From IMG/VR virus record IMGVR_UViG_3300017917_002349, positions 32,001 through 96,000 of that record: DNA of 64,000 bases. One strand, 5' to 3'. The notes below the pieces were generated by a model. The model was not told the DNA's origin and ran no database searches. It saw only the letters and a list, made by a program, of their open reading frames with translations. This stretch comes from a virus. Shown here piece by piece: positions 1-49,844 of the stretch (its first letter is position 1; every line of letters begins with the position of its first letter). Made by a program: the position numbers and the translations under genes.

Positions 1-2469
1 GGCATAACATGGACCAAAAGCAATCTTCCAGCTATCTACGAGTGGAGCTCGATCGGATATGCTCAGGGATTATTCTATGTGACCAGCCTAGGAGACTATG
101 CAGCTAGTTCCCCAGATGGTGTAACTTGGACTCTAAGAGACGGTTCGACTGCTCAGCTCAATGTCACAGCCACAGCTAAAGATACTATTTCTGCTAGCTA
201 TACAGAAACTGCAACATTGACTTCGGGCACCTGGACAGCAGTCATACATGATGGTACTAAGTTCTTAGCAGTAGGCTACAGCGGCGCAGCAGGTCTATAT
301 GCGACCAGCACCACTGGCACTACATGGACTAATAGTACACTACCTACGGTCAGCGGAGCATTTGAATATACCGCAGTGGCCTATAACGGCAGCAATCAAT
401 ATGTGGCATTGATAGGTGGCAGCGGAGGTACAAGGCACATAGCAACATCTTCCAATGCAACATCTTGGACTGGTACTGTTAATGCATTGACCGCTAACTC
501 ATACTGGAAAGACATCGTCTATGGAGCAGGTCGTTATGTGGCTATCAGAGGCGATTCTGCAGCGGTCAACTATTCTACTAACGGAACATCTTGGACCAAC
601 GCCACAGTCACATCAGGTTCTGGAGAAATGAGTGGTATCGCTTATGGTCAGATCAGCGGCGTTGATTATTTCGTAACAGTGGCAGGTTATTCTACAGGTA
701 GTCAAGTATCATCATATTCTACCAACGGCGGCGTTACATGGACATCCGGCAGCACATTACCTAGCTCAGATTTCTGGGCAGATATAGCATTTGGAGGCGG
801 AAGATTTGTAGCTGTTGCAGGCGGAACAACTAATGCAACAACCAAAGCAGCCTACAGTACCAACGGTACTACATGGACTGCGGCTACGATGCCAGGTGCA
901 GCAGCCAGGTGGAATAGAATCGTGTATGGAGGTGGCGCATTCACAGCCTTTGCTTATAACAGCAATAGAACAGCCTACTCTACTAATGGAGTAACTTGGG
1001 TAGAAGGTCCTGCACAAGCAGCAACAAGGAACTGGGCCGAAGCTGCCTACGGAGGAACAAAACTTGTTTCTCTAGCCACAGGCACTACCACAGCTTCATA
1101 TGCTGATTTTGTATTGAATACTAATTATCTAACAACTTCTAGCACTACAGATCTAAGGGTAAATGACAGAGTACGATTCACAGGTGCTACCATAGGCGGA
1201 ATCGTACCAGATGTATACTATTACATAACCAGTATCTACAGTGCTACCCAATTTACTGTTTCGACTACCAGGGGTGGTTCAAATACAGTATTAAGCACTG
1301 GCAGCGGCACAGCACCGTTCAAGTCCAGCAGAGACTTTGTAGCGGCAGCACTGGGCAATTATCAGGGAACCCCAAATTGGGTGATTCTAGCTGCTAATAG
1401 TGCAAGTGTTCAAAATATTAGAACAGGTGCCAAAACCAGAGCCAGAGCGTATGTTGTGGACGGTGCTATTTCCGAAATCTGGATACACGAACCAGGTTCA
1501 GGATATGTTAGCGCACCTACTATGACCATCACTGATCCTAATAACACAGGAGCAGATGCTACAGTCACAGTGAGATTAGGCAATGGTGCTATAGCCCAAC
1601 CTATGTTTACTAATAGAGGTACTAGTTATACCGCAGCCGCAGCTGAAATTACCGGCAATGGTTATGCTGATAATTATCAAACCAGCGCATTCGTGGCATT
1701 TGCTAATCTAACAGGAATTCCTAAAGCGGGTTCAAACGTACAGATTGCAGGCATCGATGATGTGTGGTACAGACTGGTTAATGTAACAAATCTATTACCT
1801 AATTCGGACGGTACTTATAATTGTACACTACAGATCAGTCCTGCTATCGGTGCAGCAGAAGCCCCTGAACATCAGGCAGCTGTAACTATCCGTAGACGCT
1901 ACTCGCAGGTTCGACTCACAGGACACGATCTATTAGATATCGGTACCGGAGATTTTATCAACAGTAACTATCCAGGATTACCGCTGACAGATCCAATTCC
2001 TGCACAGGAATACAAGCAAAGCAACGGTGGTCGTGTGTTCTATACCTCAACTGACCAAGACGGTAACTTCCGAGTTGGTGGACTGTTCAACGTTGAACAG
2101 AGCACAGGTGTTGCAACATTGAATGCTGACGCATTTAATATCGCAGGTTTGAACGAACTTTCGTTGGGATCTGTGGCGCTGGGCGGTGCGGGTGCTACGA
2201 TTTCTGAGTTCTCAACTGATCCGTTCTTTACTCAGGATTCTGATTCTGTAGTACCTACGCAGAGAGCTATCAAAGCATATATTACTAGCCAAATTGGTGG
2301 CGGTGGTTCTAGCTTGAACGTAAATACCCTCACTGCAGGCGTGGTCTATATAGCTGGTCAAACGATAGCTACAACTACAAATGTCCAGATTAACATAAAT
2401 ACAAAGGTAAACTTCAAAGGCGGTATTGCTGGCGATGCACTTGTATTAAACTACTTTTTACTAAATTGA
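1..2469 (+). CDS. Tail fibre / receptor-binding protein, 5'-truncated by the window edge
   Basis: Frame 1 is open from base 1 (GITWTKSNLP...), so the track start at 79 is internal. Ser/Thr/Gly-rich, with repeated Asp-box-like YSTNGxxWT motifs and a C-terminal GRVFYTSTDQDGNFRVG...VPTQRAIKAYI segment typical of large myophage fibres. Confidence 0.8.
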   Translation, partial: GITWTKSNLPAIYEWSSIGYAQGLFYVTSLGDYAASSPDGVTWTLRDGSTAQLNVTATAKDTISASYTETATLTSGTWTAVIHDGTKFLAVGYSGAAGLYATSTTGTTWTNSTLPTVSGAFEYTAVAYNGSNQYVALIGGSGGTRHIATSSNATSWTGTVNALTANSYWKDIVYGAGRYVAIRGDSAAVNYSTNGTSWTNATVTSGSGEMSGIAYGQISGVDYFVTVAGYSTGSQVSSYSTNGGVTWTSGSTLPSSDFWADIAFGGGRFVAVAGGTTNATTKAAYSTNGTTWTAATMPGAAARWNRIVYGGGAFTAFAYNSNRTAYSTNGVTWVEGPAQAATRNWAEAAYGGTKLVSLATGTTTASYADFVLNTNYLTTSSTTDLRVNDRVRFTGATIGGIVPDVYYYITSIYSATQFTVSTTRGGSNTVLSTGSGTAPFKSSRDFVAAALGNYQGTPNWVILAANSASVQNIRTGAKTRARAYVVDGAISEIWIHEPGSGYVSAPTMTITDPNNTGADATVTVRLGNGAIAQPMFTNRGTSYTAAAAEITGNGYADNYQTSAFVAFANLTGIPKAGSNVQIAGIDDVWYRLVNVTNLLPNSDGTYNCTLQISPAIGAAEAPEHQAAVTIRRRYSQVRLTGHDLLDIGTGDFINSNYPGLPLTDPIPAQEYKQSNGGRVFYTSTDQDGNFRVGGLFNVEQSTGVATLNADAFNIAGLNELSLGSVALGGAGATISEFSTDPFFTQDSDSVVPTQRAIKAYITSQIGGGGSSLNVNTLTAGVVYIAGQTIATTTNVQININTKVNFKGGIAGDALVLNYFLLN

Positions 2470-2483: not shown

Positions 2484-2804
2484 ATGGCAACAGGAATTTT
2501 AGGTCAGGCAGCTTTATCAGCAGCTACTAACACGACCGTCTACACCGTTCCAGCGACGACTTTCACGGTGTTATCAGTCTCTATTACTAATAGAGGCAAC
2601 ACTACTGTTAGCGTGAGAGTAGCCTTAGCAGCCGCAGCATCGCCAACAACAGCAGAATATATCGAGTATGATGCACAAATTGGACCAAACGGTGTTTTAG
2701 AACGCACAGGTCTAATGATGAATGCAGGCAAACTTTTGGTCTGTTATGCCAGTAACGCTAACGTCAGTGTTAGCGCATTTGGTATAGAGACATCTACAGT
2801 ATAA
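2484..2804 (+). CDS. Small virion structural protein (fibre-associated, beta-rich)
   Basis: GGAG RBS upstream; 106 aa rich in Thr/Ala/Val; directly follows the fibre gene. Confidence 0.6.
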   Translation: MATGILGQAALSAATNTTVYTVPATTFTVLSVSITNRGNTTVSVRVALAAAASPTTAEYIEYDAQIGPNGVLERTGLMMNAGKLLVCYASNANVSVSAFGIETSTV

Positions 2805-2821
2805 TAGGGGAGTAGAATAAA

Positions 2822-3148
2822 ATGGGAAGACAGGTAACATCGTTTGGTACCGACGCAGTTGTAAATAGAACCTTGACAACGTCAACCTCAGTGAATTCCA
2901 ATGAAAGAATTTTCGCTGATGCTACAGCAGGTGCATTTACACTTACGCTACCATCAAGTCCATCAGTCGGAGACACCATTCAGGTACTCGACGTAGCAGG
3001 AATCTTTTCTACAAACAACGTAACAGTTGCTAGAAACGGAAACAAGATTCAAAACTTATCAGAAGATTTAATTTTAAATCTAAACAATGCTGCGGTCACG
3101 ATGATCTTTAGTGGTTCAACCTACGGCTGGATCTTTATTGGACCATAA
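2822..3148 (+). CDS. Tail-fibre-associated domain protein
   Basis: ADATAGAFTLTLPSSPSVGDTIQVLD...NNVTVARNGNKI motif of the kind seen in T4-like long-fibre proximal domains; GGGGAG RBS. Confidence 0.65.
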   Translation: MGRQVTSFGTDAVVNRTLTTSTSVNSNERIFADATAGAFTLTLPSSPSVGDTIQVLDVAGIFSTNNVTVARNGNKIQNLSEDLILNLNNAAVTMIFSGSTYGWIFIGP

Positions 3149-3161
3149 TTAGGAATATAAA

Positions 3162-4196
3162 ATGGCGAAACTTTCTGATCTACTTTCCTCAAGAGAGATC
3201 ACTGCCTATCAGGAAAATTTACCTAAAGGAAAAATTTTCACTGCGACTGGCCTCGGCGGCATGTATTCGTGTATTAGAACGGACATGCAATGGTGTTGGA
3301 ATTCGCCAGGTTGTGGTATAGCTGTGATCGAAGTTTGGGGTGCCGCTGGATCCGCATCATGTAATTGTTGTTGCGGTGTAGGCTTGCCTGGTAACACAGG
3401 AGCTTATCTTAAAAAGACTATAGCAGTAACTCCATGTAGTTTTGTTGCAGGACGTCCAGGCGTGCCCTGCAATGGAAATAGTAACTTTTCATTCACAGGA
3501 TGCTCTGAATCTTCATGCTTTGTATGGAGTGACGCCAGAGATCTTTGTGGAAATACCAACGGATGTCTGTGCGCACAAGGTGGCGCAGCAGGTAAGAGCT
3601 GCTGTTTTGACGGCGGATCACCTTTCTGTGCATTCTATTGCACAGGTTATTGTGGAACACTGATTGTTAATGGTGCTAACGTCTGTTGTGGAATTATCTG
3701 TAATAGATGTCCCGGATTAATGGTAGCCTGTGCATGGGGCGGCGACAATAACTGCTGCGGCATAGATGGAAAAATGGAATTCCGTGGATGCCAACACATG
3801 TGTACCTGCCAATTTATAGAATATGTGCCTTATTCCCCAGCCATATTCGCTGAAGAAGGCGGTTATCTAGTGTTTCCTGTAGAGAATGATCACGGAGACT
3901 CAAACTGGGCCGGTGCAGGTATGGGTGCAGCAGGTCACGTATTGAATTCAAGTTCTAAGTCACCGTCGGGAGGCAAGCCATGGAGTGCTTGCTGGAGAGG
4001 TGATAGATTCTGTACCTGTTATGAACATCATGCATGTATGAATTACATGCCCTACGGTGTGGCAGCCAGTGCAGCTACAGTATGTCCTGGTGTGAGAGAT
4101 GTAGGACGCAGAGGCGGTGCAGGTGCGATACGAATTACATATAGAGGAACTAATCCCAACGGCGAAGTACCAAAAAAACTAGGAGGTTCTCTATAA
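3162..4196 (+). CDS. Cys- and Gly-rich putative fibre-tip/adhesin protein, paralogue 1
   Basis: 34 Cys in 344 aa (hand count); IEVWGAAGS and RGGAGAIRITY glycine-rich motifs; AGGA RBS. Confidence 0.65.
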   Translation: MAKLSDLLSSREITAYQENLPKGKIFTATGLGGMYSCIRTDMQWCWNSPGCGIAVIEVWGAAGSASCNCCCGVGLPGNTGAYLKKTIAVTPCSFVAGRPGVPCNGNSNFSFTGCSESSCFVWSDARDLCGNTNGCLCAQGGAAGKSCCFDGGSPFCAFYCTGYCGTLIVNGANVCCGIICNRCPGLMVACAWGGDNNCCGIDGKMEFRGCQHMCTCQFIEYVPYSPAIFAEEGGYLVFPVENDHGDSNWAGAGMGAAGHVLNSSSKSPSGGKPWSACWRGDRFCTCYEHHACMNYMPYGVAASAATVCPGVRDVGRRGGAGAIRITYRGTNPNGEVPKKLGGSL

Positions 4197-5404
4197 TGGC
4201 ATTATTAACTCAATTATTGGGCAACAGAGAATTAGCCTACGAAGATCAATTAGAAAAAGGTCGTATTTGGGTCTACGGTGACGGCAATGAATACAGCGGT
4301 CTATGCAACGGTTTTTGTTGGAAAGCTCCAGGCTGCGGTAAGGTCATAATCGAAATCTACGGCCCAGGTGGAGGCACTGGCCGAGGCTGCTGCTGCGGAG
4401 GTGCTGTGGCAGGAAATCCAGGGGCCTATTCAAGAAAATGTATCTGTGTATGCCCTACAAACTTTATCTGTGGTAGCATTGGTAGAGGTTGCGGTAATAC
4501 ACCTGATTATGGCAGGGGCGATGACCCAGAATCAGTACAGTTATGCTGGTTTGGCTGCGCTCCAAATGCGTTATTTGAAGGCGGTCTAAATATTCAAGCA
4601 TCTTACAAGTCTTGGAAGGGCAATAACCCCTGGGGTTGGGGCAACGGTGAAACCTACGGTAATATCTCTCAGGTAGATGCCACTAGTAGATTTTTTACTC
4701 CCATGGATAAAACACAGGCCAAGAGAATCTGCTGTGCTGCAGGAGCCAGTGCAGGTTGCATGTGCGCCCAAGGTGGTACTGGTGGGGTATATTACTGTTC
4801 AAATGACGCTATGTCGTCTTATAACTGTTTTATAAGAAATCGTTTCTGCGGACAGTTGATCGGAACCATTGAAATGTGCGGTAGCTTGTCGTCAGCAAAC
4901 TGCGGTATTATCTGTAACGTAGGTGCAGAATGTGTGCAGTGGAACATGAGAGGTATCAAGTGTGCATTTGGCGGTGACCTAAACTGCTGCGGAACGTTTT
5001 CATGCACTAGATTCCTAGACTGTGTAAGAAATAACCAAAGCTGCCGTTATCAATATCAACAGCAGACACCAGCGATGATGTATGCCACAGAGGGTGGAGT
5101 ATACACTTATACCAGTGATCATGATAGTCCTAGTGCTAGAACATCAGGCACCAATGCTCTGGGACAGATGTCAGGCATACAAACACTGATGAGAGATCCT
5201 TCTTATATCCAACCAGTATGGTGCTGGAGTGGCGGTGTGGGCTGCGGTTGTTATGAAGCATTTGGCTGCGTGGCCTGGGCACCCGTGGGCATGGGTGGAT
5301 ATCCTTCACAGACCTGCGGCGACGTTCGAGATCATGGTGGTCGAGGTGGTAACGGTGCTGTAAGAATCAGATATACGCCAACAGATGGAGGCAACACGTA
5401 CTAA
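4196..5404 (+). CDS. Cys- and Gly-rich putative fibre-tip/adhesin protein, paralogue 2
   Basis: 35 Cys in 402 aa; same motif order as paralogue 1 plus an internal insertion; TAATG stop/start coupling. Confidence 0.65.
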   Translation: MALLTQLLGNRELAYEDQLEKGRIWVYGDGNEYSGLCNGFCWKAPGCGKVIIEIYGPGGGTGRGCCCGGAVAGNPGAYSRKCICVCPTNFICGSIGRGCGNTPDYGRGDDPESVQLCWFGCAPNALFEGGLNIQASYKSWKGNNPWGWGNGETYGNISQVDATSRFFTPMDKTQAKRICCAAGASAGCMCAQGGTGGVYYCSNDAMSSYNCFIRNRFCGQLIGTIEMCGSLSSANCGIICNVGAECVQWNMRGIKCAFGGDLNCCGTFSCTRFLDCVRNNQSCRYQYQQQTPAMMYATEGGVYTYTSDHDSPSARTSGTNALGQMSGIQTLMRDPSYIQPVWCWSGGVGCGCYEAFGCVAWAPVGMGGYPSQTCGDVRDHGGRGGNGAVRIRYTPTDGGNTY

Positions 5405-5405
5405 T

Positions 5406-6407
5406 ATGGCTACCTTAAAATCATTAGTTGAAAATAAAATAAATCAGATTGATACCGACGAAATCAATCTAGAAAAAGGACAGGTATGGACATATGTGCC
5501 TTCCGGTTCCGCAGGTACTCAATTTTGGCCAAGCGGTATTTTTTGCTGGGTAGCACCGGGTACAGGTCGTGTAATAATTGACATCTGGGGTGCAGGCGGA
5601 AGTTCTGCTTCTATGAGATGTTGCGGTGCAGGTCTTCCTGGAAACCCAGGAGCATTTGCAAGGAAATGCATATGTGTTGTCGCAGGCTGTCAGATCTGTG
5701 GTCAGGTAGGTATCAGCTGCGGAAACCCAGAAACTTTCTGTTTCAAAGGCTGTTCAGAGCCTACACAAGTATGTTGGACAGGTAGAAATGCTATCACAGG
5801 CTCTGCCACCAACGGTTGTATGTGTGCCCAAGGCGGAAGAGGCGGCACAGCCTATTGTGCTCCAGGATCTGCAGCCATATTGTGCTGCTTCCAAAGCGGT
5901 GGTTTCTGTTTTACAAACTATTCTAACGGTACCTGTGGTATCGTATGTAACTATGGTTCGGGTACAGGATCATGCTGCGCAGAAGCCTATGGCGGAGACA
6001 TAAACAAACGTGGCGGATTCAGTTGTGCAACATTCTGGACCTGCTATTCAAATTGTCCATGCTCTACCCAAGGACACGTGGCTATTCCTCCAGGTCTATA
6101 TGCCTGCGATGGTGCTGTAGTAACACACGGATTTGAAGCTGATCAAGACTTTAGCCAATGGAACGGCTCTGGATATCATCAATTCATATTCATGCTCAAT
6201 GCCATGAGAAGAAGCCCATCAAGAGGTATTCCTATGGTTGCATGTTGGAGTTCGAACAAATCATGCGGCTGCTATCAGATGCAGGCCTGTATTCCATTTA
6301 TGCCCACAGGTACTGGCGGTGTAATGGGTACTCCATGCGGAGATCACTGCAACTTTGGATGGCGCGGCGGCTACGGAGCGGTTAGAATTAATTATATCTC
6401 GAGGTAA
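5406..6407 (+). CDS. Cys- and Gly-rich putative fibre-tip/adhesin protein, paralogue 3
   Basis: Start moved to ATG 5406 (MATLKSL, matching MAKLSDL and MALLTQL); 32 Cys in 333 aa; IDIWGAGGS, GCMCAQGG and RGGYGAVRINY motifs. Confidence 0.65.
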   Translation: MATLKSLVENKINQIDTDEINLEKGQVWTYVPSGSAGTQFWPSGIFCWVAPGTGRVIIDIWGAGGSSASMRCCGAGLPGNPGAFARKCICVVAGCQICGQVGISCGNPETFCFKGCSEPTQVCWTGRNAITGSATNGCMCAQGGRGGTAYCAPGSAAILCCFQSGGFCFTNYSNGTCGIVCNYGSGTGSCCAEAYGGDINKRGGFSCATFWTCYSNCPCSTQGHVAIPPGLYACDGAVVTHGFEADQDFSQWNGSGYHQFIFMLNAMRRSPSRGIPMVACWSSNKSCGCYQMQACIPFMPTGTGGVMGTPCGDHCNFGWRGGYGAVRINYISR

Positions 6408-6409
6408 AA

Positions 6410-7054
6410 ATGATTACAAAAAAATTTACACATCAACTTCCGGACCAACCATTTAAGCAGACAGCAGCGAAAAACCTCACTGTTGAGTGCGAATATAGCG
6501 GCCCAGAATTTTTATTGGTAAGAATCAAAGAAGAAAACAAGACCGTGGTCTGTGTTGAAAGATACGGCGATGATCAAGCAGCTCTAGAAGCCAGCATTGT
6601 AGACGACGGTAACATCTGGGATTTTGTGGTATTAGATGCCAAAGAACATACATGGGAAGCGGCTTATCTAACAGGAGCATACTCACATGGCGAAGTACCT
6701 GATTACAAAGAAACGTTGCCAACAGGGGAACAATATGAATTTGTCTATCCCGATGGTAACGGTGTGATTGGTACGTGTCATCCTGTTGAAGGGCTCAAGT
6801 ATGATAAAAATCTAAAGGTATATACTCGTCCTAATTTTGTTTCTCACCCTATTAATTCTATTTCTTTTTGGGAAGGTGTTGAACTACAGAAGGCGGAATT
6901 TGTCAAGTTGTTATCGTCAGACCTATCCAAGTATAACAATGAAACAATCGCAGATATACAAAACTATCATGATTTTGTCAGCACTGTAAAAACCAAATAC
7001 CACGGTGTGGACCATTGGAAAATTAGTTGGCCAAAATATCCAAATCTAGCCTAA
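6410..7054 (+). CDS. Putative tail-fibre assembly chaperone
   Basis: Acidic soluble protein directly after the fibre-tip genes, ending in ISWPKYP like the WPxxP termini of fibre assembly chaperones. Confidence 0.45.
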   Translation: MITKKFTHQLPDQPFKQTAAKNLTVECEYSGPEFLLVRIKEENKTVVCVERYGDDQAALEASIVDDGNIWDFVVLDAKEHTWEAAYLTGAYSHGEVPDYKETLPTGEQYEFVYPDGNGVIGTCHPVEGLKYDKNLKVYTRPNFVSHPINSISFWEGVELQKAEFVKLLSSDLSKYNNETIADIQNYHDFVSTVKTKYHGVDHWKISWPKYPNLA

Positions 7055-7073
7055 TTTAAACTCAGAAAAAGCC

Positions 7074-7102
7074 TTGCGCTGATGTATCTAAGGATATATA
7101 AT
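7074..7102 (+). promoter_or_regulatory. Sigma70-like promoter inside an inverted repeat
   Basis: TTGCGC (7074)-17 nt-TATAAT (7097); flanked by AGAAAAAGCCTTG and CAAGGCTTTTCT (7064-7118). Confidence 0.55.
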
Positions 7103-7130
7103 CAGACAAGGCTTTTCTATTGGAGTTTAA

Positions 7131-8066
7131 ATGACAAGATCAAAAGCGTTTTTTATAAACGGCGGTGCAGGCAGAATGATCACTTCTATTCCTGCTTTTG
7201 AAAGATACGAAAAAGAATCTGAGGACAAAGATTTTATCATCGTCTGTGAGGGCGGCACAGATGTATTCAAAGGACATCCTACATTAGATGCTAGGACCTA
7301 CGATATCTGGCACAAGGGCCTATTCCAAGACAAGCTCAAGGATAGAGATATTATCACTACAGAGCCTTACAGGATCTGGGAATATTATAACCAAAAATGT
7401 TCTATTGGCCAGGCCTTTGACATTCAAATCAATGAAAAAGGCGTAAGAGATCTAGATAAGCCCATACTTCACCTTAGCAAAGACGAACTGTTGAACGGTC
7501 GTTATGTTGTGGGTGAGGTCAAGAAAAAACTAAAAAAAGACAAGCTCATAGTATTTCAACCTTTTGGCAGAGGTATCGAATACATAGACGAAACTCTAGT
7601 CGATAAAACAGGTCGAAGTTTCGAACTTAAAGATGTGAAACAGATCATTAAAAAATTACAGCAGAACGATTTCGCTGTGATAATGATGAGCGAATTCAAA
7701 GTCGATCTGAGCGATGCCAAATTAAAAGACGAAGTAGCCACCCCAGAAAATACCAACATTAGGATTTGGGCTGCAATTATCAAATATGCCGATCACTTTC
7801 TAGGCTGCGATTCTGTAGGACAGCATCTGGCATATTCCGTAGGCACTAAATCCACGGTGGTCACTGGCGCCACATATCCTATCAACGTCACTTATCCTAA
7901 CAGCGAAGGTGTAGAAGTCCTTGACATGGGAGAAATACATAGAGAATACAGCCCTATCAGAATCACTGTAGATGAAAGAGTAGATAGAACCAATGAAAAA
8001 TTAATGGCTATGAATGATGATATCACAACACTAATAGTCAATCATGTACTAGGAAAAAAAGAATGA
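7131..8066 (+). CDS. Glycosyltransferase, GT9 (heptosyltransferase)-like GT-B fold
   Basis: N-terminal INGGAGRMITSIP and C-terminal FLGCDSVGQHLAYSVGTKSTVVTGAT resemble the GT9 GD..P and DSGxxHLA..G.P motifs. Confidence 0.65.
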   Translation: MTRSKAFFINGGAGRMITSIPAFERYEKESEDKDFIIVCEGGTDVFKGHPTLDARTYDIWHKGLFQDKLKDRDIITTEPYRIWEYYNQKCSIGQAFDIQINEKGVRDLDKPILHLSKDELLNGRYVVGEVKKKLKKDKLIVFQPFGRGIEYIDETLVDKTGRSFELKDVKQIIKKLQQNDFAVIMMSEFKVDLSDAKLKDEVATPENTNIRIWAAIIKYADHFLGCDSVGQHLAYSVGTKSTVVTGATYPINVTYPNSEGVEVLDMGEIHREYSPIRITVDERVDRTNEKLMAMNDDITTLIVNHVLGKKE

Positions 8067-9898
8067 CAGTTACTTCAATCACAAAAGAGACAGTAAAGAA
8101 ACCAATTTGGATAGCAGGCATCGCTCGGGGACATAATGCTGGAATTTGTCTGCTCAAAGATGGCGAAATAGTTTTTAGCATCGAAGAAGAGAGATTAACC
8201 AGACAAAAATATGATGGAGGTCCTTTGGCTTCTATGGTTAAGATTCTAGAATACACTGATAAACTAGATTATTTGATCATTGCTCATACACAACCTTTAT
8301 ATGAAACCGCCGGTAAGATAGATTATACCGGCGATGATATGTACACAGGCATGGCCAGAAAATTAGGACTAATTGACAGAAAAGTCAAGAATCTACACAA
8401 GCATCCTCAGGTAATTGATATGAGCTACATGCATCATAAACTACATACGGCCTGTGCATTTTATCGCAGTGGATTTAAAGAAGCAGTTTCGTTGATCGTA
8501 GATGGTGCAGGAACTTTCTTTCCTATGAGTTATAATGACAGCCAAGTTTGGTTCTGGGAAACAGAATCTATTGTAGACTGCCAATATCCTGCAGAATTTA
8601 AAACACTTTACAAGCATTATGGTACTAAAGATCCGATACCTTGTGCTTTTATTCCTCGATTTAGTTCTGATTCTCTAGGAGAGACTGGAGATACACACGA
8701 AGCTTGGTTAACTGATCGATCAGGAATCGTTAAAGTCTACGAAGGTGTGACCGAATATTGCGGATTTAGTGCCATCGAAGCAGGCAAGACCATGGGTCTA
8801 TTCCCCTATGGTAAAGCTAATCCTAATATTCCACCTTTGTTTGACCCAACTGGAAAAACACCCTTATCTAATAGGAATTTTATTATTCCTAAATATCCTA
8901 TGAGCAGCATTGTCAACATGAATCTTTTCGAGGCTGTAGAACAAGATCCAGAAAATGTAGACGAAGATCTAACTCTCATGGACAATAGACGAGACATGGC
9001 CTATGCTGTTCAGACGCAGACACAAGAACAAGTAGTTCGTTTGATCAAGTATGCTGTAGAAAAAAGTGGTAGGAAACAGGTCACTATCAGCGGAGGCTAC
9101 GGTCTCAACTGCGTGGCCAACTATTATTATCTAGAACAACTTAAAGATTCCGGAATTGAAATTTATGTAGAGCCTATCTCAAACGATGCCGGTACTGCGA
9201 TGGGTGCAGCATTAATGTTCTGGCACGGTATGTACAACGACGAAACTATTCGTCCATACGGTACGTTGTATCTAGGACCCGAATATCATTATACAGACAA
9301 AGATATTTCAGAAAAGGTCGCTGGTGTACAAGGAGCCACAGTTGTAGACGCTACACATAAAGATGTGGTCAAGCTTCTACGTGAAAAAAATATCGTTACT
9401 ATCTTCCAAGGACGTTCAGAAAACGGCCCTCGAGCACTAGGCAATCGTTCAGTATTATTTGATCCAACATTTCCGGACGGTAAAGATTTTGTCAACACTG
9501 TTAAACGTCGCGAGTATTTCCGTCCTTTTGCAGGCAGCATTTTACAAGATGATGTACATGATTGGTTTGATCTGAGAGGTATGAAAGATAGTCCTTTTAT
9601 GATGTATGCAGTAAATTGTCAACCAGGCATCGAAGAAAAGATTCCCAGCATCATTCACGAAGATCATACCTGTAGGATACAGACTGTGACCAGAGATCAA
9701 AATCCTCACTATTATGATTTGATCAAGACCTTCAAAGAGGAAACAGGAATTCCTATTTTGTTCAATACCAGCTTTAATCTAGGCGGAGAACCCCTAGTAG
9801 AAACCCTAGATGATGCAATTTGGACTCTACAGAATTCAGATATTATGTATCTGTATTTGCCAGAATACGGTAAACTGATTTACGTGCCCAACGAATAA
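8063..9898 (+). CDS. O-carbamoyltransferase, NodU/CmcH/TobZ family, full length
   Basis: EEERLTRQK, HHKLH, VDGAG, GKTMGL, SGGYGLNCVAN, DAGTAMGAA, GPRALGNRS, KRREYFRPFA and NTSFNLGGEPLV motifs. Confidence 0.92.
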   Translation: MTVTSITKETVKKPIWIAGIARGHNAGICLLKDGEIVFSIEEERLTRQKYDGGPLASMVKILEYTDKLDYLIIAHTQPLYETAGKIDYTGDDMYTGMARKLGLIDRKVKNLHKHPQVIDMSYMHHKLHTACAFYRSGFKEAVSLIVDGAGTFFPMSYNDSQVWFWETESIVDCQYPAEFKTLYKHYGTKDPIPCAFIPRFSSDSLGETGDTHEAWLTDRSGIVKVYEGVTEYCGFSAIEAGKTMGLFPYGKANPNIPPLFDPTGKTPLSNRNFIIPKYPMSSIVNMNLFEAVEQDPENVDEDLTLMDNRRDMAYAVQTQTQEQVVRLIKYAVEKSGRKQVTISGGYGLNCVANYYYLEQLKDSGIEIYVEPISNDAGTAMGAALMFWHGMYNDETIRPYGTLYLGPEYHYTDKDISEKVAGVQGATVVDATHKDVVKLLREKNIVTIFQGRSENGPRALGNRSVLFDPTFPDGKDFVNTVKRREYFRPFAGSILQDDVHDWFDLRGMKDSPFMMYAVNCQPGIEEKIPSIIHEDHTCRIQTVTRDQNPHYYDLIKTFKEETGIPILFNTSFNLGGEPLVETLDDAIWTLQNSDIMYLYLPEYGKLIYVPNE

Positions 9899-9920
9899 AA
9901 AAGCCCGCAAGGGCTTTTTT
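9897..9920 (+). terminator. Intrinsic terminator, probably bidirectional
   Basis: AAAAAA-GCCC-GCAA-GGGC-TTTTTT. Confidence 0.8.
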
Positions 9921-9929
9921 ATTTCCTGC

Positions 9930-9935
9930 TAAATA
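9930..9935 (+). promoter_or_regulatory. T4-type late promoter core TAAATA
   Basis: Follows a terminator, 7 nt before ATG 9943; the motif recurs before many structural genes. Confidence 0.6.
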
Positions 9936-9942
9936 CACTACT

Positions 9943-10380
9943 ATGATTAATTTCGCTAACTATTTCTTTCAAGGTGTTAAAAACACATTACGAGTTCAAA
10001 ACGGTGTAAATCTTGCCTATAAAGGTCCCTGGGTTTCGGTGTTCCAAGATACTCTTGTAGACGAATGGTATGTGGGCGATTTTATGGCTGCAGAATATAC
10101 CGTGGTAGTTGACGTGGGAAATACCAAAAAAGAAATAATCAAAGCTATGGTAGTAGCAGGACCTAGCCAAGCTAATGTAACTATCTACGGTAGAAATAGC
10201 CTCAATGAGAAATTAGTAGATTTATCAGTTACGGTCAACGATTCAAAAGTCCAGCTGATCGCAAATCCTGCTAGCAGTGCCACCGACAGTACCTATGATG
10301 ATTCCGGTCTTTTGGTAGGATCTAAGCTGATTTTCAGCGCCACTTATTATCATACCCTAAACGATCTCACAAGTTATTAA
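9943..10380 (+). CDS. Virion structural protein (hypothetical)
   Basis: 145 aa, beta-rich, in the tail cluster behind a late promoter. Confidence 0.5.
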   Translation: MINFANYFFQGVKNTLRVQNGVNLAYKGPWVSVFQDTLVDEWYVGDFMAAEYTVVVDVGNTKKEIIKAMVVAGPSQANVTIYGRNSLNEKLVDLSVTVNDSKVQLIANPASSATDSTYDDSGLLVGSKLIFSATYYHTLNDLTSY

Positions 10381-10447: not shown

Positions 10448-11059
10448 ATGTCAATTAATTACCTACCATTAGAATCAAAAAGCGGATTTAAAAGTCCGGG
10501 TTTTTCTGTCAACGAAAATGGTGATCTAACCGTAGATGGTGCGGTACTGTTTAACAGCCAACTCAATGTAGCCCCAGATTTCGCAGTTAACGGCGTGCTT
10601 ATCATAGATTCTACCGATTCGATAGTTGCGCTAGGCGATCAAATCAAACACAGCAGTCTTGTAAAATTAGGAGTTTTAGAAAATCTTTCTATTGACGGCG
10701 ACTTTACTGTGGCACAAGGTTCTACACCGTATGTCAGCATCGTCAACGGACACGTAGAAATAAATTCTGTGGCCAGTGTTGGTGCCATAGATAATGTAGA
10801 TATTGGTCTAAAAGATCCGGGCGATGCTAATTTTAAATCAGTAAACATCGGTCCAGGCGACAGCACCGGTGAATTATCAGTTCAAGGTAACGCTAGTATA
10901 AGTTTAGATTTAACTGTCACAGGCGATACCACAGTCAGTGGAGATATAGCAGCAAGTAACATAACGGTTTCAAACACACCTACAGCAAATAATCAAGTGA
11001 CTAGAAAAGACTATGTCGATGCTAGAGCCACAGCGTTTGCAGTTGCGTTTGGAGCATAA
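10448..11059 (+). CDS. Short fibre/shaft-like structural protein
   Basis: Repeating LxVxG beta motifs and TRKDYVD fibre motif; GGAG RBS; TAAATA at 10395. Confidence 0.55.
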   Translation: MSINYLPLESKSGFKSPGFSVNENGDLTVDGAVLFNSQLNVAPDFAVNGVLIIDSTDSIVALGDQIKHSSLVKLGVLENLSIDGDFTVAQGSTPYVSIVNGHVEINSVASVGAIDNVDIGLKDPGDANFKSVNIGPGDSTGELSVQGNASISLDLTVTGDTTVSGDIAASNITVSNTPTANNQVTRKDYVDARATAFAVAFGA

Positions 11060-38795: not shown

Positions 38796-39250
38796 TGAAC
38801 TGGTACGATCGAGTTTCAAAAGATATTTCAAATATACCAGATGCTGTGGCATTCTATGAGGCTGAATTATTAGCAGCGAAGAATGATGCTCGCATAGCGG
38901 GAAACATTGAAAGAGCCTCTGCTGCGATGCCTGGCATTGTTGAAAATAGATTTAATCAACTTCAAGAAATTGAAGCTATACTTGAATATCTAAACATTGA
39001 GCTCCGTCGACTTCGTAGCCAACATTTTCGTAAGTATCTCGAAAACTATCAACGTGCTTTGTCCTCTAGAGATTGTGAAAAGTTTGTAGAGGGCGAAGCA
39101 GACGTTGTTGATTTTGAAAAAATTATCAATGATTTTGCCTTGCTTAGAAATAAATGGTTAGGCATTATCAAAGCCTTGGATATTAAACAATGGCAGTTGA
39201 GTAATATTGTAAAACTTAGAACTGCCGGATTAGAAGATGCTACTCTATGA
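38795..39250 (+). CDS. uvsY: Recombination mediator UvsY-like
   Basis: Helical 151-aa protein ending IKALDIKQWQLSNIVKLRTAG, like UvsY; next to uvsX. Confidence 0.75.
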   Translation: MNWYDRVSKDISNIPDAVAFYEAELLAAKNDARIAGNIERASAAMPGIVENRFNQLQEIEAILEYLNIELRRLRSQHFRKYLENYQRALSSRDCEKFVEGEADVVDFEKIINDFALLRNKWLGIIKALDIKQWQLSNIVKLRTAGLEDATL

Positions 39251-40212
39251 ATATCTTAGTTACAGGCGGGTTAGGCCTCATCGGTCATAACATAGTACAG
39301 AAATTAAATAATCAAGGACACAAGGTTATTGTTTACGATAACTGTACTACCTATGGAATTATCCCTCAAGCAGAATTAGATTATCTCATCGCCGAGCGTA
39401 AAAAATTAATCGGCGATGTAGAAATACATGAAAATGATATTCTTCAAGGTAGTATGTTTGATTGGCTGCTACCTAAACATAACATCGAAGCCATTATTCA
39501 TCTAGCAAGTTTTCCCAGGCAGAAAGTAGTTAATGCTAATCCTTGTTGGGGTAGCACTGTGATGAGTACAGGACTTTTGATGCTACTAGAAAAAGCAGTT
39601 CAACACGGTGTTCGTAGATTTACCTATGCAAGCTCTAGCATGGTATATGGAGATTTCGAAGACTACGTTACCGAAGATGCGGTATGTAGACCACAAGGCC
39701 AATACGGCATTTTGAAATTAGCAGGCGAATGGTTAGTCAAAGACTATACCCGCAAGTATGGCATCGAGCACACTATTCTTAGACCCAGCGCCGTCTATGG
39801 GCCATTAGATGTTGAAGATAGAGTTATTTCTAAATTCTTACTTACTGCGATGCGAGGTCAAACCCTCAAGGTAAATGGACGCAATGAGACTTTAGATTTC
39901 ACATATGTAGACGATGCAGCCACAGGATTTGTAAATGCTACCTTGTCTCCTATTGCGGCTAACAACACCTATAATATAACCAAGAGTCATAGTTATACCT
40001 TATTGGCCGCTGCTGAACTAGCTATAACGTTAGCAGGAAGAGGCGGTATTGAAGTTAGAGACAAGGACGCAGATTTTCCTAGTCGTGGTGCTCTGGATAT
40101 AACCAAAGCTCGTAGAGATTTTGATTTTTCCCCTAAAGTAGATATAGAAGAAGGTTTTGAAATTTATTACAAGTGGTTAACAGAATCGCCTTATTGGCAA
40201 TCTAATCTTTAA
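39247..40212 (+). CDS. NAD-dependent nucleotide-sugar epimerase/dehydratase
   Basis: ILVTGGLGLIG, ASSSMVYG, YGILK and DFTYVDD motifs. Confidence 0.9.
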   Translation: MNILVTGGLGLIGHNIVQKLNNQGHKVIVYDNCTTYGIIPQAELDYLIAERKKLIGDVEIHENDILQGSMFDWLLPKHNIEAIIHLASFPRQKVVNANPCWGSTVMSTGLLMLLEKAVQHGVRRFTYASSSMVYGDFEDYVTEDAVCRPQGQYGILKLAGEWLVKDYTRKYGIEHTILRPSAVYGPLDVEDRVISKFLLTAMRGQTLKVNGRNETLDFTYVDDAATGFVNATLSPIAANNTYNITKSHSYTLLAAAELAITLAGRGGIEVRDKDADFPSRGALDITKARRDFDFSPKVDIEEGFEIYYKWLTESPYWQSNL

Positions 40213-40243
40213 TCTGCAATAAAATACCCATATAAATAAGACT

Positions 40244-41008
40244 ATGAAAATAGTCTTAGTCACAGGGGGTTTTGACCCCATACATTCTGGGCATATTGCC
40301 TATTTCAAGGCAGCCAAACAACTTGGTGATATTTTGATAGTTGGTGTCAATTCTGACGCATGGCTGGCACGGAAGAAAGGTGCAGCATTTATGCCCAGCA
40401 CTGAACGTATATCTATAATCGAAAATATCAAAGCAGTAGATGGTGTTCTACTGTTCGACGACAACGATGGATCAGCCAAAGAAGCTATTAAAAATGTACG
40501 TCGATTATATCCAGACAGTAAAATAATTTTCGCCAATGGCGGTGATCGCACCTCATCAAATATCCCGGAAATGGACATCATAGATGATAACCTAGAGTTT
40601 GCCTTTGGTGTAGGCGGCGAAAACAAAATGAATTCTAGTTCTTGGATACTTGAAGAATGGAAAGCACCTAAAACACAACGTCCTTGGGGATATTATAGAG
40701 TCTTGCACGAAAACGGTAAAGAGGTTAAGTTGAAAGAGCTAACTGTAGATCCTGGTAAGAGACTATCAATGCAACGCCACAAGGACAGAGGTGAAATATG
40801 GTTTGTTGCAGAGGGCATAGCTACATTGTATTATATCGATGATCGAACTACTGACGTTGAACTAAGTGGACACTATAAAAAGTTTCAAACATTGTTTATT
40901 TCTAACAACGAATGGCATCAGCTCAGCAACGAATCTGATCGACCACTAAAAATCGTTGAAATCCAATACGGCGAGCGATGTGAAGAAGAGGATATAGAAA
41001 GAAAATGA
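40244..41008 (+). CDS. HxGH nucleotidyltransferase (TagD/HldE-C-like) fused to a type II phosphomannose-isomerase-like cupin
   Basis: GGFDPIHSGH and GVNSD, then RPWGYY, LSMQRH and IVEIQYG...EEDIER; TATAAATA at 40231. Confidence 0.85.
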   Translation: MKIVLVTGGFDPIHSGHIAYFKAAKQLGDILIVGVNSDAWLARKKGAAFMPSTERISIIENIKAVDGVLLFDDNDGSAKEAIKNVRRLYPDSKIIFANGGDRTSSNIPEMDIIDDNLEFAFGVGGENKMNSSSWILEEWKAPKTQRPWGYYRVLHENGKEVKLKELTVDPGKRLSMQRHKDRGEIWFVAEGIATLYYIDDRTTDVELSGHYKKFQTLFISNNEWHQLSNESDRPLKIVEIQYGERCEEEDIERK

Positions 41009-41685
41009 TTCCTGTATTCATTGGTTACGATCCTAGAGAAGCTATCGCATATCATGTTTGTTCTAACAGTATTATTAGGCGTTCTAGTCAACCTGTTACC
41101 ATAGCGCCATTGGCTCTTAACATATTAAAAGATTATAAAGAAACTCACACAGACGGTAGTAATCATTTTATCTACAGTCGATTTCTAGTACCGCATCTAA
41201 TGAACTATAGAGGATGGGCCATATTCATCGACGGTGATATGATATTCAGAGACGATGTAGTTAACTTATGGAATCTTCGAGATGAATCAAAAGCCGTTAT
41301 GGTGGTCAAACATGATTATCAAACTAAGATGCTGGAAAAATATCTTGGTTCAAAAAATGAAAACTATCCCAGAAAGAATTGGTCAAGCGTCATCCTATGG
41401 AATTGCGGGCACCCCGCTAATCAATCCGTTACACCAGAATTCGTCCAACAAGCCACAGGAGCACAGGTCCACAGATTCTCTTGGTTGACCGATGATCTTA
41501 TAGGTGCCTTACCCATGGAATGGAATTGGTTAGATTTAGAATACGAATATAATCATGATGCCAAACTAGTACATTATACTTTAGGAACTCCTTGCTTTCA
41601 CGAATTTGCAGATCAGGGAGATTTTGCCGACGAGTGGCATCGGGAACGCATATACACAGATTACTGCCAGCAAAAAAATATATGA
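41005..41685 (+). CDS. Glycosyltransferase, GT8-like GT-A fold
   Basis: FIGYDPRE, SRFLVP, FIDGDM, RKNWSS, LPMEWNWL and VHYTLG motifs. Confidence 0.8.
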   Translation: MIPVFIGYDPREAIAYHVCSNSIIRRSSQPVTIAPLALNILKDYKETHTDGSNHFIYSRFLVPHLMNYRGWAIFIDGDMIFRDDVVNLWNLRDESKAVMVVKHDYQTKMLEKYLGSKNENYPRKNWSSVILWNCGHPANQSVTPEFVQQATGAQVHRFSWLTDDLIGALPMEWNWLDLEYEYNHDAKLVHYTLGTPCFHEFADQGDFADEWHRERIYTDYCQQKNI

Positions 41686-42500
41686 ACAATTGGATTTTTC
41701 TCAGCAAGGACGGCGAAGATGAATATGTCAATATGTTTGCCATCGGTACCGGAGGTAGAGTAATATCTACACAAGATTTCGTATTTGAAGATTCAAACGA
41801 CCCCTTGGTTATTAGGGGAATACTTAAGAAAAAGATCATACAAGAATGTTGGAAAACCAATAGAGATTTTTATTTTATAGATACCGGATACTTAGGTAAT
41901 CAAAAAGGTCCGCTTAACCCCATGGGATGGAAATACTATCATCGTATTGTCAAAAATGATCTTCAATATGCGGGTGACATTATTCCTAGACCCGACGATC
42001 GTTTTAGAAAATTAGCTGTTCCTATCATGCCGTGGAAACGTGGAGGAAGGAAAATATTGATTGCTAAACCCGATGATAAACCTATGAGATTTTACGGATT
42101 AGATCTAGAGCAGTGGTTAGAACAAACTATTAATACGATTCAACAATATTCAGATAGAGAAATAGTTGTCCGAGAAAGAGTGAAGAGTAGGACAGATAGA
42201 ATGGTACATAATACTCTTAAAGAGGCTCTAGATGATGATGTACACTGTCTAGTAACTTTTAACAGCAATGCCGCTACAGAATCAGTATTACATGGAATAC
42301 CTGCCTTTACACTGGCTCCTAGTCATGCTGCGGGACCAGTATGTAGCAATGATCTTTCTCGGATTGAAAATCCTTATTATCCAGACAAAGACAAAGTGCA
42401 TGCATGGGCCTGTCATTTAGCATATCTTCAGTTTCATAATCATGAGCTTAGGGATGGTTCTGCTAAAAGACTTATAGAACAAACTTATTCAGGAATCTAA
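41682..42500 (+). CDS. KpsC/KpsS-like (capsule-synthesis family) transferase, paralogue A
   Basis: Start moved to ATG 41682 (ATGA overlap); IDTGY, IVVRER, TFNSNAATESVLHGIP and LAYLQF motifs. Confidence 0.55.
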   Translation: MNNWIFLSKDGEDEYVNMFAIGTGGRVISTQDFVFEDSNDPLVIRGILKKKIIQECWKTNRDFYFIDTGYLGNQKGPLNPMGWKYYHRIVKNDLQYAGDIIPRPDDRFRKLAVPIMPWKRGGRKILIAKPDDKPMRFYGLDLEQWLEQTINTIQQYSDREIVVRERVKSRTDRMVHNTLKEALDDDVHCLVTFNSNAATESVLHGIPAFTLAPSHAAGPVCSNDLSRIENPYYPDKDKVHAWACHLAYLQFHNHELRDGSAKRLIEQTYSGI

Positions 42501-42502
42501 AA

Positions 42503-43183
42503 ATGGATTTACATTTTATTACGAGTGTATCTAAAAATTATTGGAATGAAACGGGTCAGTACTGTATCAAAACTTGGAACAGTTTACCGGGAAAAATTAC
42601 AGTATATATAGATCAAAAAGACGGCGATTTAGACTGGATCAAAGATATTCCGTTTCATAAGGAACTTTTATATGTACCTAATCTAGAAGCCAGAGTCGCA
42701 GATAGAGCCAAGGTGAGAAAATTCTGGGGCAAGGCCACGGCACAGATTACAGCCTGTAGAAATCGAGGCCTGGACGAAAGAATAATCTGGATCGATGCAG
42801 ATGTAGAAAATACTCTGGCCAATATGCCTCCTGTAATTTTCAATTTTGAATTTCCTGAACCAGTGGCTGTGATGAATTCGGGAGATCATGAAGATTGTTG
42901 GGAATCAGGAATAGTGATTTTTAATCAGAGAGGTGAAAAGTTTGATCGATTTGTAAGACTATACGAAAAGGCATGGCTAGACGAAGACACTCTTTTGGGA
43001 TTATATAGGCCATATGATGCTCAGGTAATAGGACATGTGGCTTCTGAGCGAGGATATAAAAATCTATGTCAAAGAGAATGTAAAAATATAAATGCCATGG
43101 AAAATACTCATTTTGCTCCTTATTTTAAGCATTGGATTAACAAAGATAACAAAAAGAAATTACAAGAACAAAGAGCTCAGTGA
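42503..43183 (+). CDS. GT-A (DxD) nucleotide-sugar transferase-like protein
   Basis: IIWIDAD and ESGIVIFN motifs; related to 48610-49416. Confidence 0.6.
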   Translation: MDLHFITSVSKNYWNETGQYCIKTWNSLPGKITVYIDQKDGDLDWIKDIPFHKELLYVPNLEARVADRAKVRKFWGKATAQITACRNRGLDERIIWIDADVENTLANMPPVIFNFEFPEPVAVMNSGDHEDCWESGIVIFNQRGEKFDRFVRLYEKAWLDEDTLLGLYRPYDAQVIGHVASERGYKNLCQRECKNINAMENTHFAPYFKHWINKDNKKKLQEQRAQ

Positions 43184-44115: not shown

Positions 44116-44118
44116 AAT

Positions 44119-46707: not shown

Positions 46708-47260
46708 TTTGTTCCTCTAAAATTTTAATAATTTCATCATTAGAATATAATCTTACATTCTTTATAAAATCTAAGAATTCGTTGTATGACAAGTTCTTGT
46801 AATAATCCGAAGGGAACACTTTTTTTGCAGGCATTTTGATAAGAGTTAGTCCAAAATTTTCATTCATAGGAAAAATTTTAAAATCCTCTTCTTTTAAAAA
46901 ATAATATAATAGCTTATAGGAATCCGAACAAAGATGAGATTGTGCATGTTCTTCGCTAGGAGGTATCATGTCATGAATTAGAATCCACTCATTACAATGA
47001 TCAACCGAATTATTAAAATCTCTTAATACAAAATCATAATCGTGATTCGCATCAATAAAAATTATATCAAATTTTTTATCAATGTCTAAGCCGGCGAAAT
47101 ATTCATCTGTTGTGCCTGTAAACAATGCTTTGCCATTAAGATCCACTGAAAATTTATCATTTGATCTAATCGACATAAAATTATAATTTTTAAAAACACC
47201 TAATTCCAGATAACTTTTATTTTCGATATCGGGTAAGTGATTAATTACTTGACAACTCAT
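46700..47260 (-). CDS. Class I SAM-dependent methyltransferase
   Basis: YLELGV, FDIIFIDANHDY and ILIHD motifs. Confidence 0.8.
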   Translation of the reverse strand: MSCQVINHLPDIENKSYLELGVFKNYNFMSIRSNDKFSVDLNGKALFTGTTDEYFAGLDIDKKFDIIFIDANHDYDFVLRDFNNSVDHCNEWILIHDMIPPSEEHAQSHLCSDSYKLLYYFLKEEDFKIFPMNENFGLTLIKMPAKKVFPSDYYKNLSYNEFLDFIKNVRLYSNDEIIKILEEQNV

Positions 47261-49808: not shown

Positions 49809-49818
49809 GATTTGCTAT

Positions 49819-49836: not shown

Positions 49837-49844
49837 TTCCCTAT

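Follow-up and report, generated by a model that had tools for sequence, protein, structure and literature searches.

GT9 enzymes are known to heptosylate adhesins of Escherichia coli, and mycobacteriophage enzymes are known to glycosylate virion proteins; the targets named for the latter are capsid and tail-tube C termini, as Freeman et al. 2023 is relayed in PMC12619734. A sugar of a related kind occurs in the lipopolysaccharide (LPS) core of Pseudomonas, where the pathway gives 7-O-carbamoyl-heptose II (PMC8005017). On the side of host recognition, the tail fibre gp24 of cyanophage Pam3 binds its receptor via TNF-like as well as glycine-rich domains, and the chaperone gp25 is encoded adjoining gp24 (PMC9608196). 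Large cyanomyoviruses carry the gene clusters T4-GC 297-303 at the edge of an "LPS gene cluster," with their function left open (PMC3037559). The "LPS genes" of these phages have gone unexplained since 2005 and are usually assumed to remodel the host surface, which is the prevailing view (PMC3037559, PMC7029224, PMC12801897). Here, we describe a block matching those clusters at positions 2484 to 9898 of a 64,000-nucleotide stretch of viral DNA, called the window below (positions 32,001 to 96,000 of IMG/VR record IMGVR_UViG_3300017917_002349). In this block, Cys/Gly-rich fibre-tip genes are followed by genes for a GT9-fold glycosyltransferase (GT) and a NodU/TobZ-type O-carbamoyltransferase (CT).

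We propose, at a probability of about 0.45, that the GT-CT pair decorates the Cys-rich fibre-tip apparatus of the phage itself with carbamoyl-heptose. The identities of the enzymes and the link to heptose we infer on solid grounds; the acceptor is put forward more tentatively. The gene set itself is already in published cyanophage genomes, as part of the long-annotated "LPS gene cluster" region of large cyanomyoviruses. In the literature, we found no paper linking these enzymes to Cys-rich Pam3-like fibre tips.

Results

The two enzymes. The initial annotation of this DNA had described two small fibre adaptors, three Cys/Gly-rich paralogues and a WPxxP chaperone-like gene, followed by a coupled GT9-like glycosyltransferase and NodU/TobZ-type carbamoyltransferase with their own sigma70-like promoter and a closing terminator. 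The block was confirmed in the window, with every listed open reading frame present at its coordinates on the + strand (Table 1). The individual assignments were also borne out, apart from the chaperone-like label, which is taken up below.

Table 1. Features of the block and its surroundings (window positions)
Feature	Position	Strand	Basis or remark
Long tail-fibre protein, C-terminal part	1..2469	+	phrog_9851 tail fiber, E 3e-50; open reading frame extends beyond window start
Small fibre-domain protein "a" (s106), 106 aa	2484..2804	+	phrog_11338 tail fiber
Small fibre-domain protein "b" (s108), 108 aa	2822..3148	+	17 PHROG matches, mostly tail fibre/tail spike/baseplate
Cys/Gly-rich paralogue 1, 344 aa, 34 Cys	3162..4196	+	phrog_4205; paralogy by BLASTP
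Cys/Gly-rich paralogue 2, 402 aa, 35 Cys	4196..5404	+	paralogy by BLASTP, composition
Cys/Gly-rich paralogue 3, 340 aa counted from 5385, 32 Cys	5385..6407	+	paralogy, predicted structure
Protein "H", 214 aa, candidate fibre-assembly chaperone	6410..7054	+	position downstream of fibre genes
Long hairpin (arms 7070-7076, 7107-7113) and T-rich run	7070..7119	+	direct reading; between H and GT
Sigma70-like site TTGCGC (7074-7079)-N17-TATAAT (7097-7102)	7074-7102	+	direct reading; inside the hairpin
GT, GT9 fold, 311 aa, probable ADP-heptose-dependent heptosyltransferase	7131..8066	+	AF2 fold, motif, phrog_8954
CT, NodU/TobZ-type O-carbamoyltransferase, 611 aa	8063..9898	+	Pfam, homology to solved enzymes
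Intrinsic terminator closing the GT-CT unit, AAAAAGCCC-GCAA-GGGCTTTTTT	9897..9923	+	GC hairpin and T-run, direct reading
T4-type late-promoter-like box CTAAATAC	9929..9936	+	in front of next structural gene
x145	9943-10380	+	conserved downstream gene, accompanies block
x203	10448-11059	+	conserved downstream gene; weak tail-fibre PHROG matches

Judged by its sequence, the 611-aa protein is unambiguously a NodU/TobZ-type O-carbamoyltransferase. Its matches to the Pfam domains Carbam_trans_C (191.7 bits) and Carbam_trans_N (102.6 bits) lie far above the cut-offs of 27 and 24 bits, which gives it a Kae1-like N-terminal and a YrdC-like C-terminal domain, and it falls in phrog_1601 (E 7e-164). It is homologous to the solved carbamoyltransferases 7xb6 (E 2.1e-54), NovN (2.5e-45) and TobZ (3.8e-43), and also to GdmN. 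The metal/nucleotide motifs HxxxH and DG line up with those of the solved enzymes, HHKLH pairing with HHRAH and the VDGA/NDGQ motifs also aligning. The GT and CT genes share a 4-nt ATGA overlap (8063-8066), by which CT is predicted to be translationally coupled to GT.

The GT belongs to phrog_8954, a family of unknown function (E 2.5e-137), and its relationships were brought out by structure. An AlphaFold 2 (AF2) model built from 38 homologues (pLDDT 88.5) scored best against the Veillonella GT9 enzyme 3tov (Z 23.1, rmsd 3.4, 278 aligned), followed by WaaF (Z 20.6), TibC (19.6) and WaaC (18.9), with the GT9-like chains of plant PnsB1 at Z 18.3 to 18.6. Every solved GT9 entry ranked first, and other GT-B families reached at most Z 12; Foldseek likewise gave GT9 (E 1.8e-10). 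The residues D227, S228, G230 and H232, a D-S-x-G-x-H motif, are invariant in the 38 sequences, and hhalign paired them with the ADP-heptose-binding motif D261-T-G-L-S-H266 of WaaC. The alignments of the family with WaaC, WaaF and WaaU covered the C-terminal domain alone, not the N-terminal domains. Taken together, the model and the motif make the GT a probable ADP-heptose-dependent heptosyltransferase of the GT9 fold. Its N-terminal (acceptor) domain has a pI of ∼8, versus 9.6 to 10 in the LPS heptosyltransferases of E. coli, and the family has two invariant cysteines, C90 and C226.

The orthologues of this GT in the cultured cyanophages S-CAM1 (L001:9004-10143), S-SSM7 (L002:8989-10236) and P-SSM2 (L003:8998-10110) carry Pro/Gln/Ser-rich C-terminal tails of 60 to 110 aa that end in Lys-rich patches and are absent from the 311-aa form dominating metagenomes. 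We considered whether the 311-aa protein is a truncated version of the 370- to 415-aa isolate forms and rejected this. The motif sits at a normal distance from the C terminus, hundreds of metagenomic homologues are 311 to 313 aa long, and the extra residues of the isolates are low-complexity tails.

The Cys/Gly-rich fibre-tip proteins. The three genes upstream encode proteins with 8.7 to 9.9% Cys and 15 to 17% Gly that are paralogous far beyond chance (30 to 36% pairwise BLASTP identity, E 1e-34 to 2e-57). Paralogue alignments begin at residue 8 of the third, so its true start is probably the ATG at 5406 and not 5385; this would remove the 20-nt overlap with the preceding gene. A family alignment of 55 diverse members served as the basis for structure prediction. 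The AF2 model of paralogue 3 (pLDDT 82.7) has a helix at residues 11 to 25 and then a beta-rich body. In VIA-align comparisons, it matched Pam3 gp24 in both entries, 7ypx (Z 14.3, rmsd 13.1 over 216 residues) and 7yfw (Z 13.9, rmsd 3.2 over 194). The next matches were a tail tip chain of mycobacteriophage Bxb1 (Z 11.7) and the glycine-rich domain of ALK/LTK (Z ∼7), with unrelated rows at Z 3.9 or below. The N-terminal pattern MA.L..LL is kept even in distant members. The modelled fold thus gives good support to the view that the three proteins are fibre-tip paralogues, as had been suggested from their sequences.

Protein H is placed like a chaperone gene, downstream of the fibre genes, and in several relatives its copies are interleaved with the Cys-rich ones. 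It ends in ...SWPKYPNLA. Its label as a candidate chaperone comes from the Pam3-like position and from weak language-model leads: ESM-Atlas pointed to Phage_tail_APC and Caudo_TAP with sub-threshold scores of 0.87 to 0.89, and a Pfam search of H gave zero matches.

Linkage of the pair to the fibre tips. The block is syntenic with P-SSM2 gp302-308, S-SSM7 gp113-121 and S-CAM1 gp229-221, and with the GT as query, 80 IMG/VR loci were recovered. Their gene order is nearly invariant: fibre, a, b, two or three Cys-rich genes, H, GT, CT, x145 and x203. Variants include a second GT paralogue (52 to 57% identity) directly after CT (L048, L053-L056, L058, L060-L063, L066, L068-L072), an inversion of GT-CT at its usual site, flanked by H and x145 (L081, L083), the order CT then GT (L091), extra genes between GT and CT, and heptose genes after CT. 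Across ∼100 loci examined with hidden Markov models (HMMs) and by composition, every lineage, to GT identities as low as 34%, has a protein with 7 to 12% Cys encoded directly upstream of GT. There are one to three such genes or, in one case, a single fusion of 1257 aa. The enzymes keep their place at the fibre genes in the inverted cassettes of the loci named above and in the window's own genome, where the heptose genes are relocated.

The initial annotation had tied the two enzymes to the Cys-rich triplet, and within the reach of the searches this tie was found from both directions, from the GT as just described and from the Cys-rich proteins. A tblastn search with the window's own Cys-rich protein at 1e-5 found no match; the family diverges too fast, so the P-SSM2 and S-SSM7 members and HMMs were used instead. 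Searches with the P-SSM2 and S-SSM7 proteins returned GT-bearing isolates only (22 of 22 and 17 of 17 records). Five further locus scans, from distant Cys-rich representatives, gave nothing beyond a 1.3-kb fragment and one usable locus (L102), which again showed the order Cys-rich gene, H, GT, CT. Among isolates, protein a is also confined to GT-bearing phages.

Distant members of phrog_8954 lie among tail-fibre genes in two other phages, both without a carbamoyltransferase at its side: an unrelated Aeromonas myophage, where the gene comes after a fibre-like protein and before the gene for the sheath, and an N4-like podophage of Vibrio. In a scan of 185,579 species genomes, one per prokaryotic species, the GT was found only on contigs with phage fibre genes. 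Block-bearing phage contigs (L088-L100), one of them 335 kb long, had been binned into metagenome-assembled genomes of incoherent taxonomy, labelled Chitinophagales, Methanobacteriota, Neomarinimicrobiota, Woesearchaeota, Polynucleobacter and others, evidently by mis-binning of giant-phage DNA.

Genes for an ADP-heptose donor. Directly after GT-CT, the phages S-CAM1, S-SSM7 and P-SSM2 and several metagenomic loci carry genes for an HldE-like kinase, an adenylyltransferase, GmhA, a cupin and an epimerase; alternatively, the 3' neighbour of the pair is a GmhB-like HAD phosphatase. The window's genome has cupin, HAD phosphatase, adenylyltransferase, PfkB kinase and epimerase genes at genome positions 133.6 to 136.5 kb (L004:5603-8542). 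This relocated set stands beside ClpP protease and class I/II aminotransferase genes.

Transcription signals. The sequence around the pair looks like that of an autonomous unit, read by host polymerase, inside late structural genes. A consensus promoter scanner missed the site in front of GT, whose -35 element matches 3 of 6 bases. When the pattern TTGNNN-N17-TATAAT was searched on the 162-kb contig, the GT site was the sole occurrence on the + strand, and 17 occurred on the - strand at genome positions 97 to 152 kb (window ∼65000 to 96000 and beyond). Most of these lie at 97 to 130 kb and read (G)TTGACA; these strong (G)TTGACA promoters are followed by GGAGCGA-type ribosome-binding sites and mark the early region. 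The ribosome-binding site of GT is GGAG, without the extension seen at the - strand sites. Across related loci, the hairpin arms at the GT promoter vary in a compensatory way. The TATAAT is retained in the nearest clades, and distant clades have a terminator and then other sigma70-like sites.

A palindrome in the spacer and -10 element (consensus among relatives, ATATCC-N4-GGATAT-ATAAT) occurs at window 7085-7102, at window ∼76109 on the - strand, and at genome position 151527 on the - strand. The GT promoter shares membership of this small palindromic class with one or more further promoters on the contig, and the palindrome may be the operator of a regulator or an RNA hairpin.

The terminator after CT was not flagged by the consensus scanner either; it was read directly and checked by conservation, and an equivalent hairpin and T-run 3' of CT is conserved in most close relatives. 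Beyond it, the late-promoter-like sequence (G/C)(A/T)TAAATA is conserved 6 to 15 nt before the x145 start in relatives.

Source of the window and neighbouring genes. The window is part of a 161,938-bp IMG/VR contig with a CheckV completeness of 46%. Since contigs related to it reach 353 to 370 kb, the contig represents part of the genome of a giant T4-like myophage from water. A megablast of the region against 50,697 phage records gave zero matches, so this phage has no close cultured relative. A search of the contig for psbA found none, which says little given its completeness.

The last 150 aa of the long fibre show 47 to 49% identity to annotated tail fibre proteins of S-CAM1, P-SSM2 and S-SSM7. 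The N-terminal two thirds of this protein (window 79-2469) carry repeated YSTNG(T/V)(T/S)W motifs reminiscent of BNR/Asp-box beta-propeller repeats. The assignment of proteins a and b as small fibre adaptors agrees with their matches to segments of tail-fibre PHROGs. Protein a is 54 to 58% identical to its S-CAM1 and P-SSM2 orthologues, and its domain is also embedded in a downstream tail-fibre protein of these two phages; a homologue of the b domain is fused to the C terminus of the S-SSM7 long fibre (residues 1386-1472). Downstream, x145 and x203 precede a 2237-aa structural protein, with synteny in ∼70 loci.

A second glycan-building island, under late promoters, lies at window 39247-50687. 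It contains two or three NDP-sugar epimerase/dehydratase/reductase genes, a gene that joins cytidylyltransferase-like and cupin parts (40244-41008), transferases resembling GT8, GT2/7C and GT25, a methyltransferase and several genes left without an assignment. Among its 14 genes, neither a flippase nor a polymerase was recognised. This island could supply or extend a glycan acted on by the GT-CT pair.

Discussion

The region is best explained as the distal host-recognition module of a giant T4-like phage together with a dedicated glycan-modifying cassette. In the mechanism that we propose, the long fibre would lead through two small adaptor domains to three alternative Pam3 gp24-like tips, served by a probable assembly chaperone. 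Each tip would consist of an N-terminal docking helix followed by TNF-like and glycine/cysteine-rich receptor-binding domains. The GT-CT pair would be transcribed separately, from its host-type promoter. The GT9-fold enzyme would take heptose from ADP-heptose, a donor that the kinase, phosphatase, adenylyltransferase and epimerase encoded elsewhere in the phage genome would make, and would transfer it to the acceptor in the cytoplasm. The coupled NodU/TobZ-type enzyme would O-carbamoylate that heptose with carbamoyl phosphate and ATP. The tips would thus be modified before assembly, as TibC and AAH heptosylate neighbouring adhesins.

Several observations weigh against such a decoration of the tips, and those on the enzyme itself could be taken to mean that the protein with the GT9 fold has no catalytic activity and instead has a part in the structure or assembly of the fibre, comparable to that of the PnsB1 subunit in chloroplast NDH, with CT acting independently. 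Models of GT9 sequences fail on the GT: Pfam gave no match at E<=0.01, to Glyco_transf_9 or any other model, and the NCBIfam matches to TIGR02201 (heptosyltransferase III, 16.8 bits versus a cut-off of 170) and RfaQ (16.3 bits versus 467) are below threshold and local to the C-terminal motif. Single-sequence and profile searches against the PDB gave chance matches only and no GT9 entry. The PnsB1-type chains score as high as WaaC does. The loop after strand 1 is an invariant N10-G-G-x-G14-R15 in the GT family, which appears to read G-R where WaaC, WaaF and WaaU of E. coli have an invariant G12-D13; Asp13 of WaaC is the catalytic Asp of that loop. Against a dead enzyme stands the sugar-nucleotide motif, which is invariant across the family. 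The gene is also tightly coupled to that of a sugar carbamoyltransferase and, in many phages, to the whole pathway for ADP-heptose, a coupling that would be pointless without transfer; we consider this explanation extremely unlikely. Decoration of the tips meets further difficulties on the side of donor and acceptor. No SIS-type GmhA was found in a search of the contig, which is 46% complete. Neither Ser nor Thr is conserved at any position in the 55-member alignment of the tip family, and O-linkage to Ser at a conserved site, as made by TibC, is therefore unsupported. The conserved nucleophiles of the family are Cys, Asn, Tyr and Arg only, which would leave as candidates an S-linked heptose on a conserved Cys, or an Asn, Arg or Tyr linkage, neither of which is known for GT9 enzymes; we rate such an unusual linkage as highly unlikely. 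The counts of loci, too, must be read with care, as the loci share ancestry and are not independent counts.

Linkage within a hypervariable host-recognition region could also arise for receptor-masking genes or as a recombination cassette, and these two possibilities lead to the remaining explanations. The pair might modify a glycoconjugate of the host envelope during infection, an LPS-like glycolipid or other surface glycan, and so mask the receptor of the fibre tip, exclude superinfecting phages, or stop progeny from being trapped on infected or lysed cells. A receptor-masking gene beside a receptor-binding gene, the llp-oad arrangement of phage T5, would be co-selected with it. The canonical substrates of GT9 enzymes are LPS cores, and carbamoyl-heptose is known from the LPS core of Pseudomonas, via WapO (PMC8005017). 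The transcription signals fit as well. A pair with its own terminator and a host-type promoter of a kind otherwise confined to the early region, seemingly not co-transcribed with the late fibre genes and predicted from the two inverted loci to function as a unit in either orientation, could also be an early host-directed "moron." However, the LPS of marine Synechococcus, the hosts of several block-bearing isolates, lacks heptose and Kdo, the usual context of a GT9 acceptor (PMC4515613); hosts of this kind would explain why the phages carry a donor pathway of their own. In the scan of species genomes, the GT family has no cellular members save in mis-binned phage contigs. Its acceptor domain is not strongly basic like that of the LPS heptosyltransferases that face the membrane, its distant members in lytic phages of Aeromonas and Vibrio are found between genes for fibres with no other envelope genes, and neither a flippase nor a membrane protein is encoded in the cassette. 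A target in the host envelope seems to us rather unlikely but a serious rival. It is also conceivable that a recombination hot spot carries the pair as cargo and that its acceptor is a different one, such as the glycan of the second island, a capsid or sheath protein or a small molecule, its place beside the Cys-rich genes having no direct biochemical meaning. In the glycan island of this phage, neither flippase nor polymerase was recognised among 14 genes, and marine myophages gather unrelated glycosyltransferases in their clusters for host recognition (PMC7029224). Carbamoyltransferases of the NodU type are present in 142 phage records, in many settings other than this one, and ADP-heptose genes are also found in cyanophages without this GT, e.g., S-SM2 (PMC3037559). 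Yet the adjacency outlasts changes in copy number, fusion, inversion, insertions and relocation of the heptose genes, and it is seen again in two unrelated families of phages. Hitch-hiking alone would hardly account for this, and we find the explanation clearly unlikely. Of the two targets raised in the initial annotation, the virion apparatus and the host envelope, the host-type promoter speaks for the latter. We favour modification of the virion because its linkage to the fibre genes survives rearrangement and recurs in unrelated phages, because the GT is confined to phages and is less basic in its acceptor domain, and because the Synechococcus hosts lack heptose and Kdo.

A phage-only GT-CT pair tied to Cys-rich receptor-binding tips across many aquatic phages, including isolates whose hosts make no heptose, offers a concrete and testable alternative to the usual view of these genes: the organelle with which phages of Gram-negative and cyanobacterial hosts recognise those hosts may be glycosylated by the phages themselves. 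If this is true, the host range of some of the most abundant viruses in the ocean has a further, chemical layer of determination, virion glycosylation extends beyond mycobacteriophages, and GT9 enzymes gain a new class of acceptor. Should the unusual linkage hold, it would be a new post-translational modification of virions that tunes host recognition in abundant aquatic phages. Cultured block-bearing phages exist in S-CAM1, S-SSM7 and P-SSM2.

Comparison with known systems

The nearest counterpart of the block is T4-GC 297-303 (P-SSM2 gp302-308, S-SSM7 gp114-121, S-CAM1 gp228-221), which shares its order of tail fibre, small domain proteins, Cys-rich proteins (10 to 11.6% Cys there), H-like gene, GT and CT, with 44 to 55% identity in GT and 47 to 62% in CT. 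The published annotation there is mostly hypothetical proteins plus a "Nol-like carbamoyltransferase" and assigns the block no function. In those phages, the ADP-heptose genes directly follow, whereas they lie ∼95 kb away in the window's genome, and the window's GT does not have the low-complexity C-terminal tail of 60 to 110 aa found there.

The tips most resemble Pam3 gp24 (PDB 7YPX), with the same succession of N-terminal helix, TNF-like and glycine-rich receptor-binding domains, and with a small gene directly downstream of the fibre gene in the position of the TfaMu-like chaperone gp25; the likeness of H to gp25 is one of gene position. Unlike the single gene of Pam3, there are three tandem paralogues here, with ∼10% Cys and 15 to 17% Gly as opposed to 39% Gly in the Pam3 glycine-rich domain. 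The adjoining GT and carbamoyltransferase have no reported equivalent in Pam3.

For the proposed chemistry, the closest parallels are TibC-TibA and AAH-AIDA-I (PDB 4rap, 4rb4), which have in common with the pair a GT9 fold, a presumed ADP-heptose donor, an enzyme gene adjoining that of a surface-recognition protein, and modification in the cytoplasm, which is predicted here. TibC has an N-terminal region, an iron finger coordinated by cysteines, and a dodecameric assembly. The GT model aligns to TibC residues 92-391 alone, with no counterpart of the N-terminal region, and with only two invariant cysteines in the family no iron finger can be made out. In its fold, the GT matches WaaF no less closely than TibC. 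Systems of the TibC kind have no carbamoyltransferase partner, and the Cys-rich tips lack conserved Ser or Thr.

The inner core of Pseudomonas LPS (WaaC/WaaF plus the putative carbamoyltransferase WapO, PA5005) shows the same predicted chemistry on L-glycero-D-manno-heptose. That pathway is cellular and membrane associated and acts on Kdo-lipid A, whereas the present pair lies in a fibre module, its GT belongs to a phage-only subfamily, and the known hosts of block-bearing phages have neither heptose nor Kdo in their LPS. The virion glycosylation of mycobacteriophages is alike in that phage glycosyltransferases are encoded within the structural module, and there they glycosylate virion proteins. 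The enzymes, sugars, targets and hosts differ, and the addition of heptose and its carbamoylation, as predicted for the phage described here, have no part in the mycobacteriophage case.

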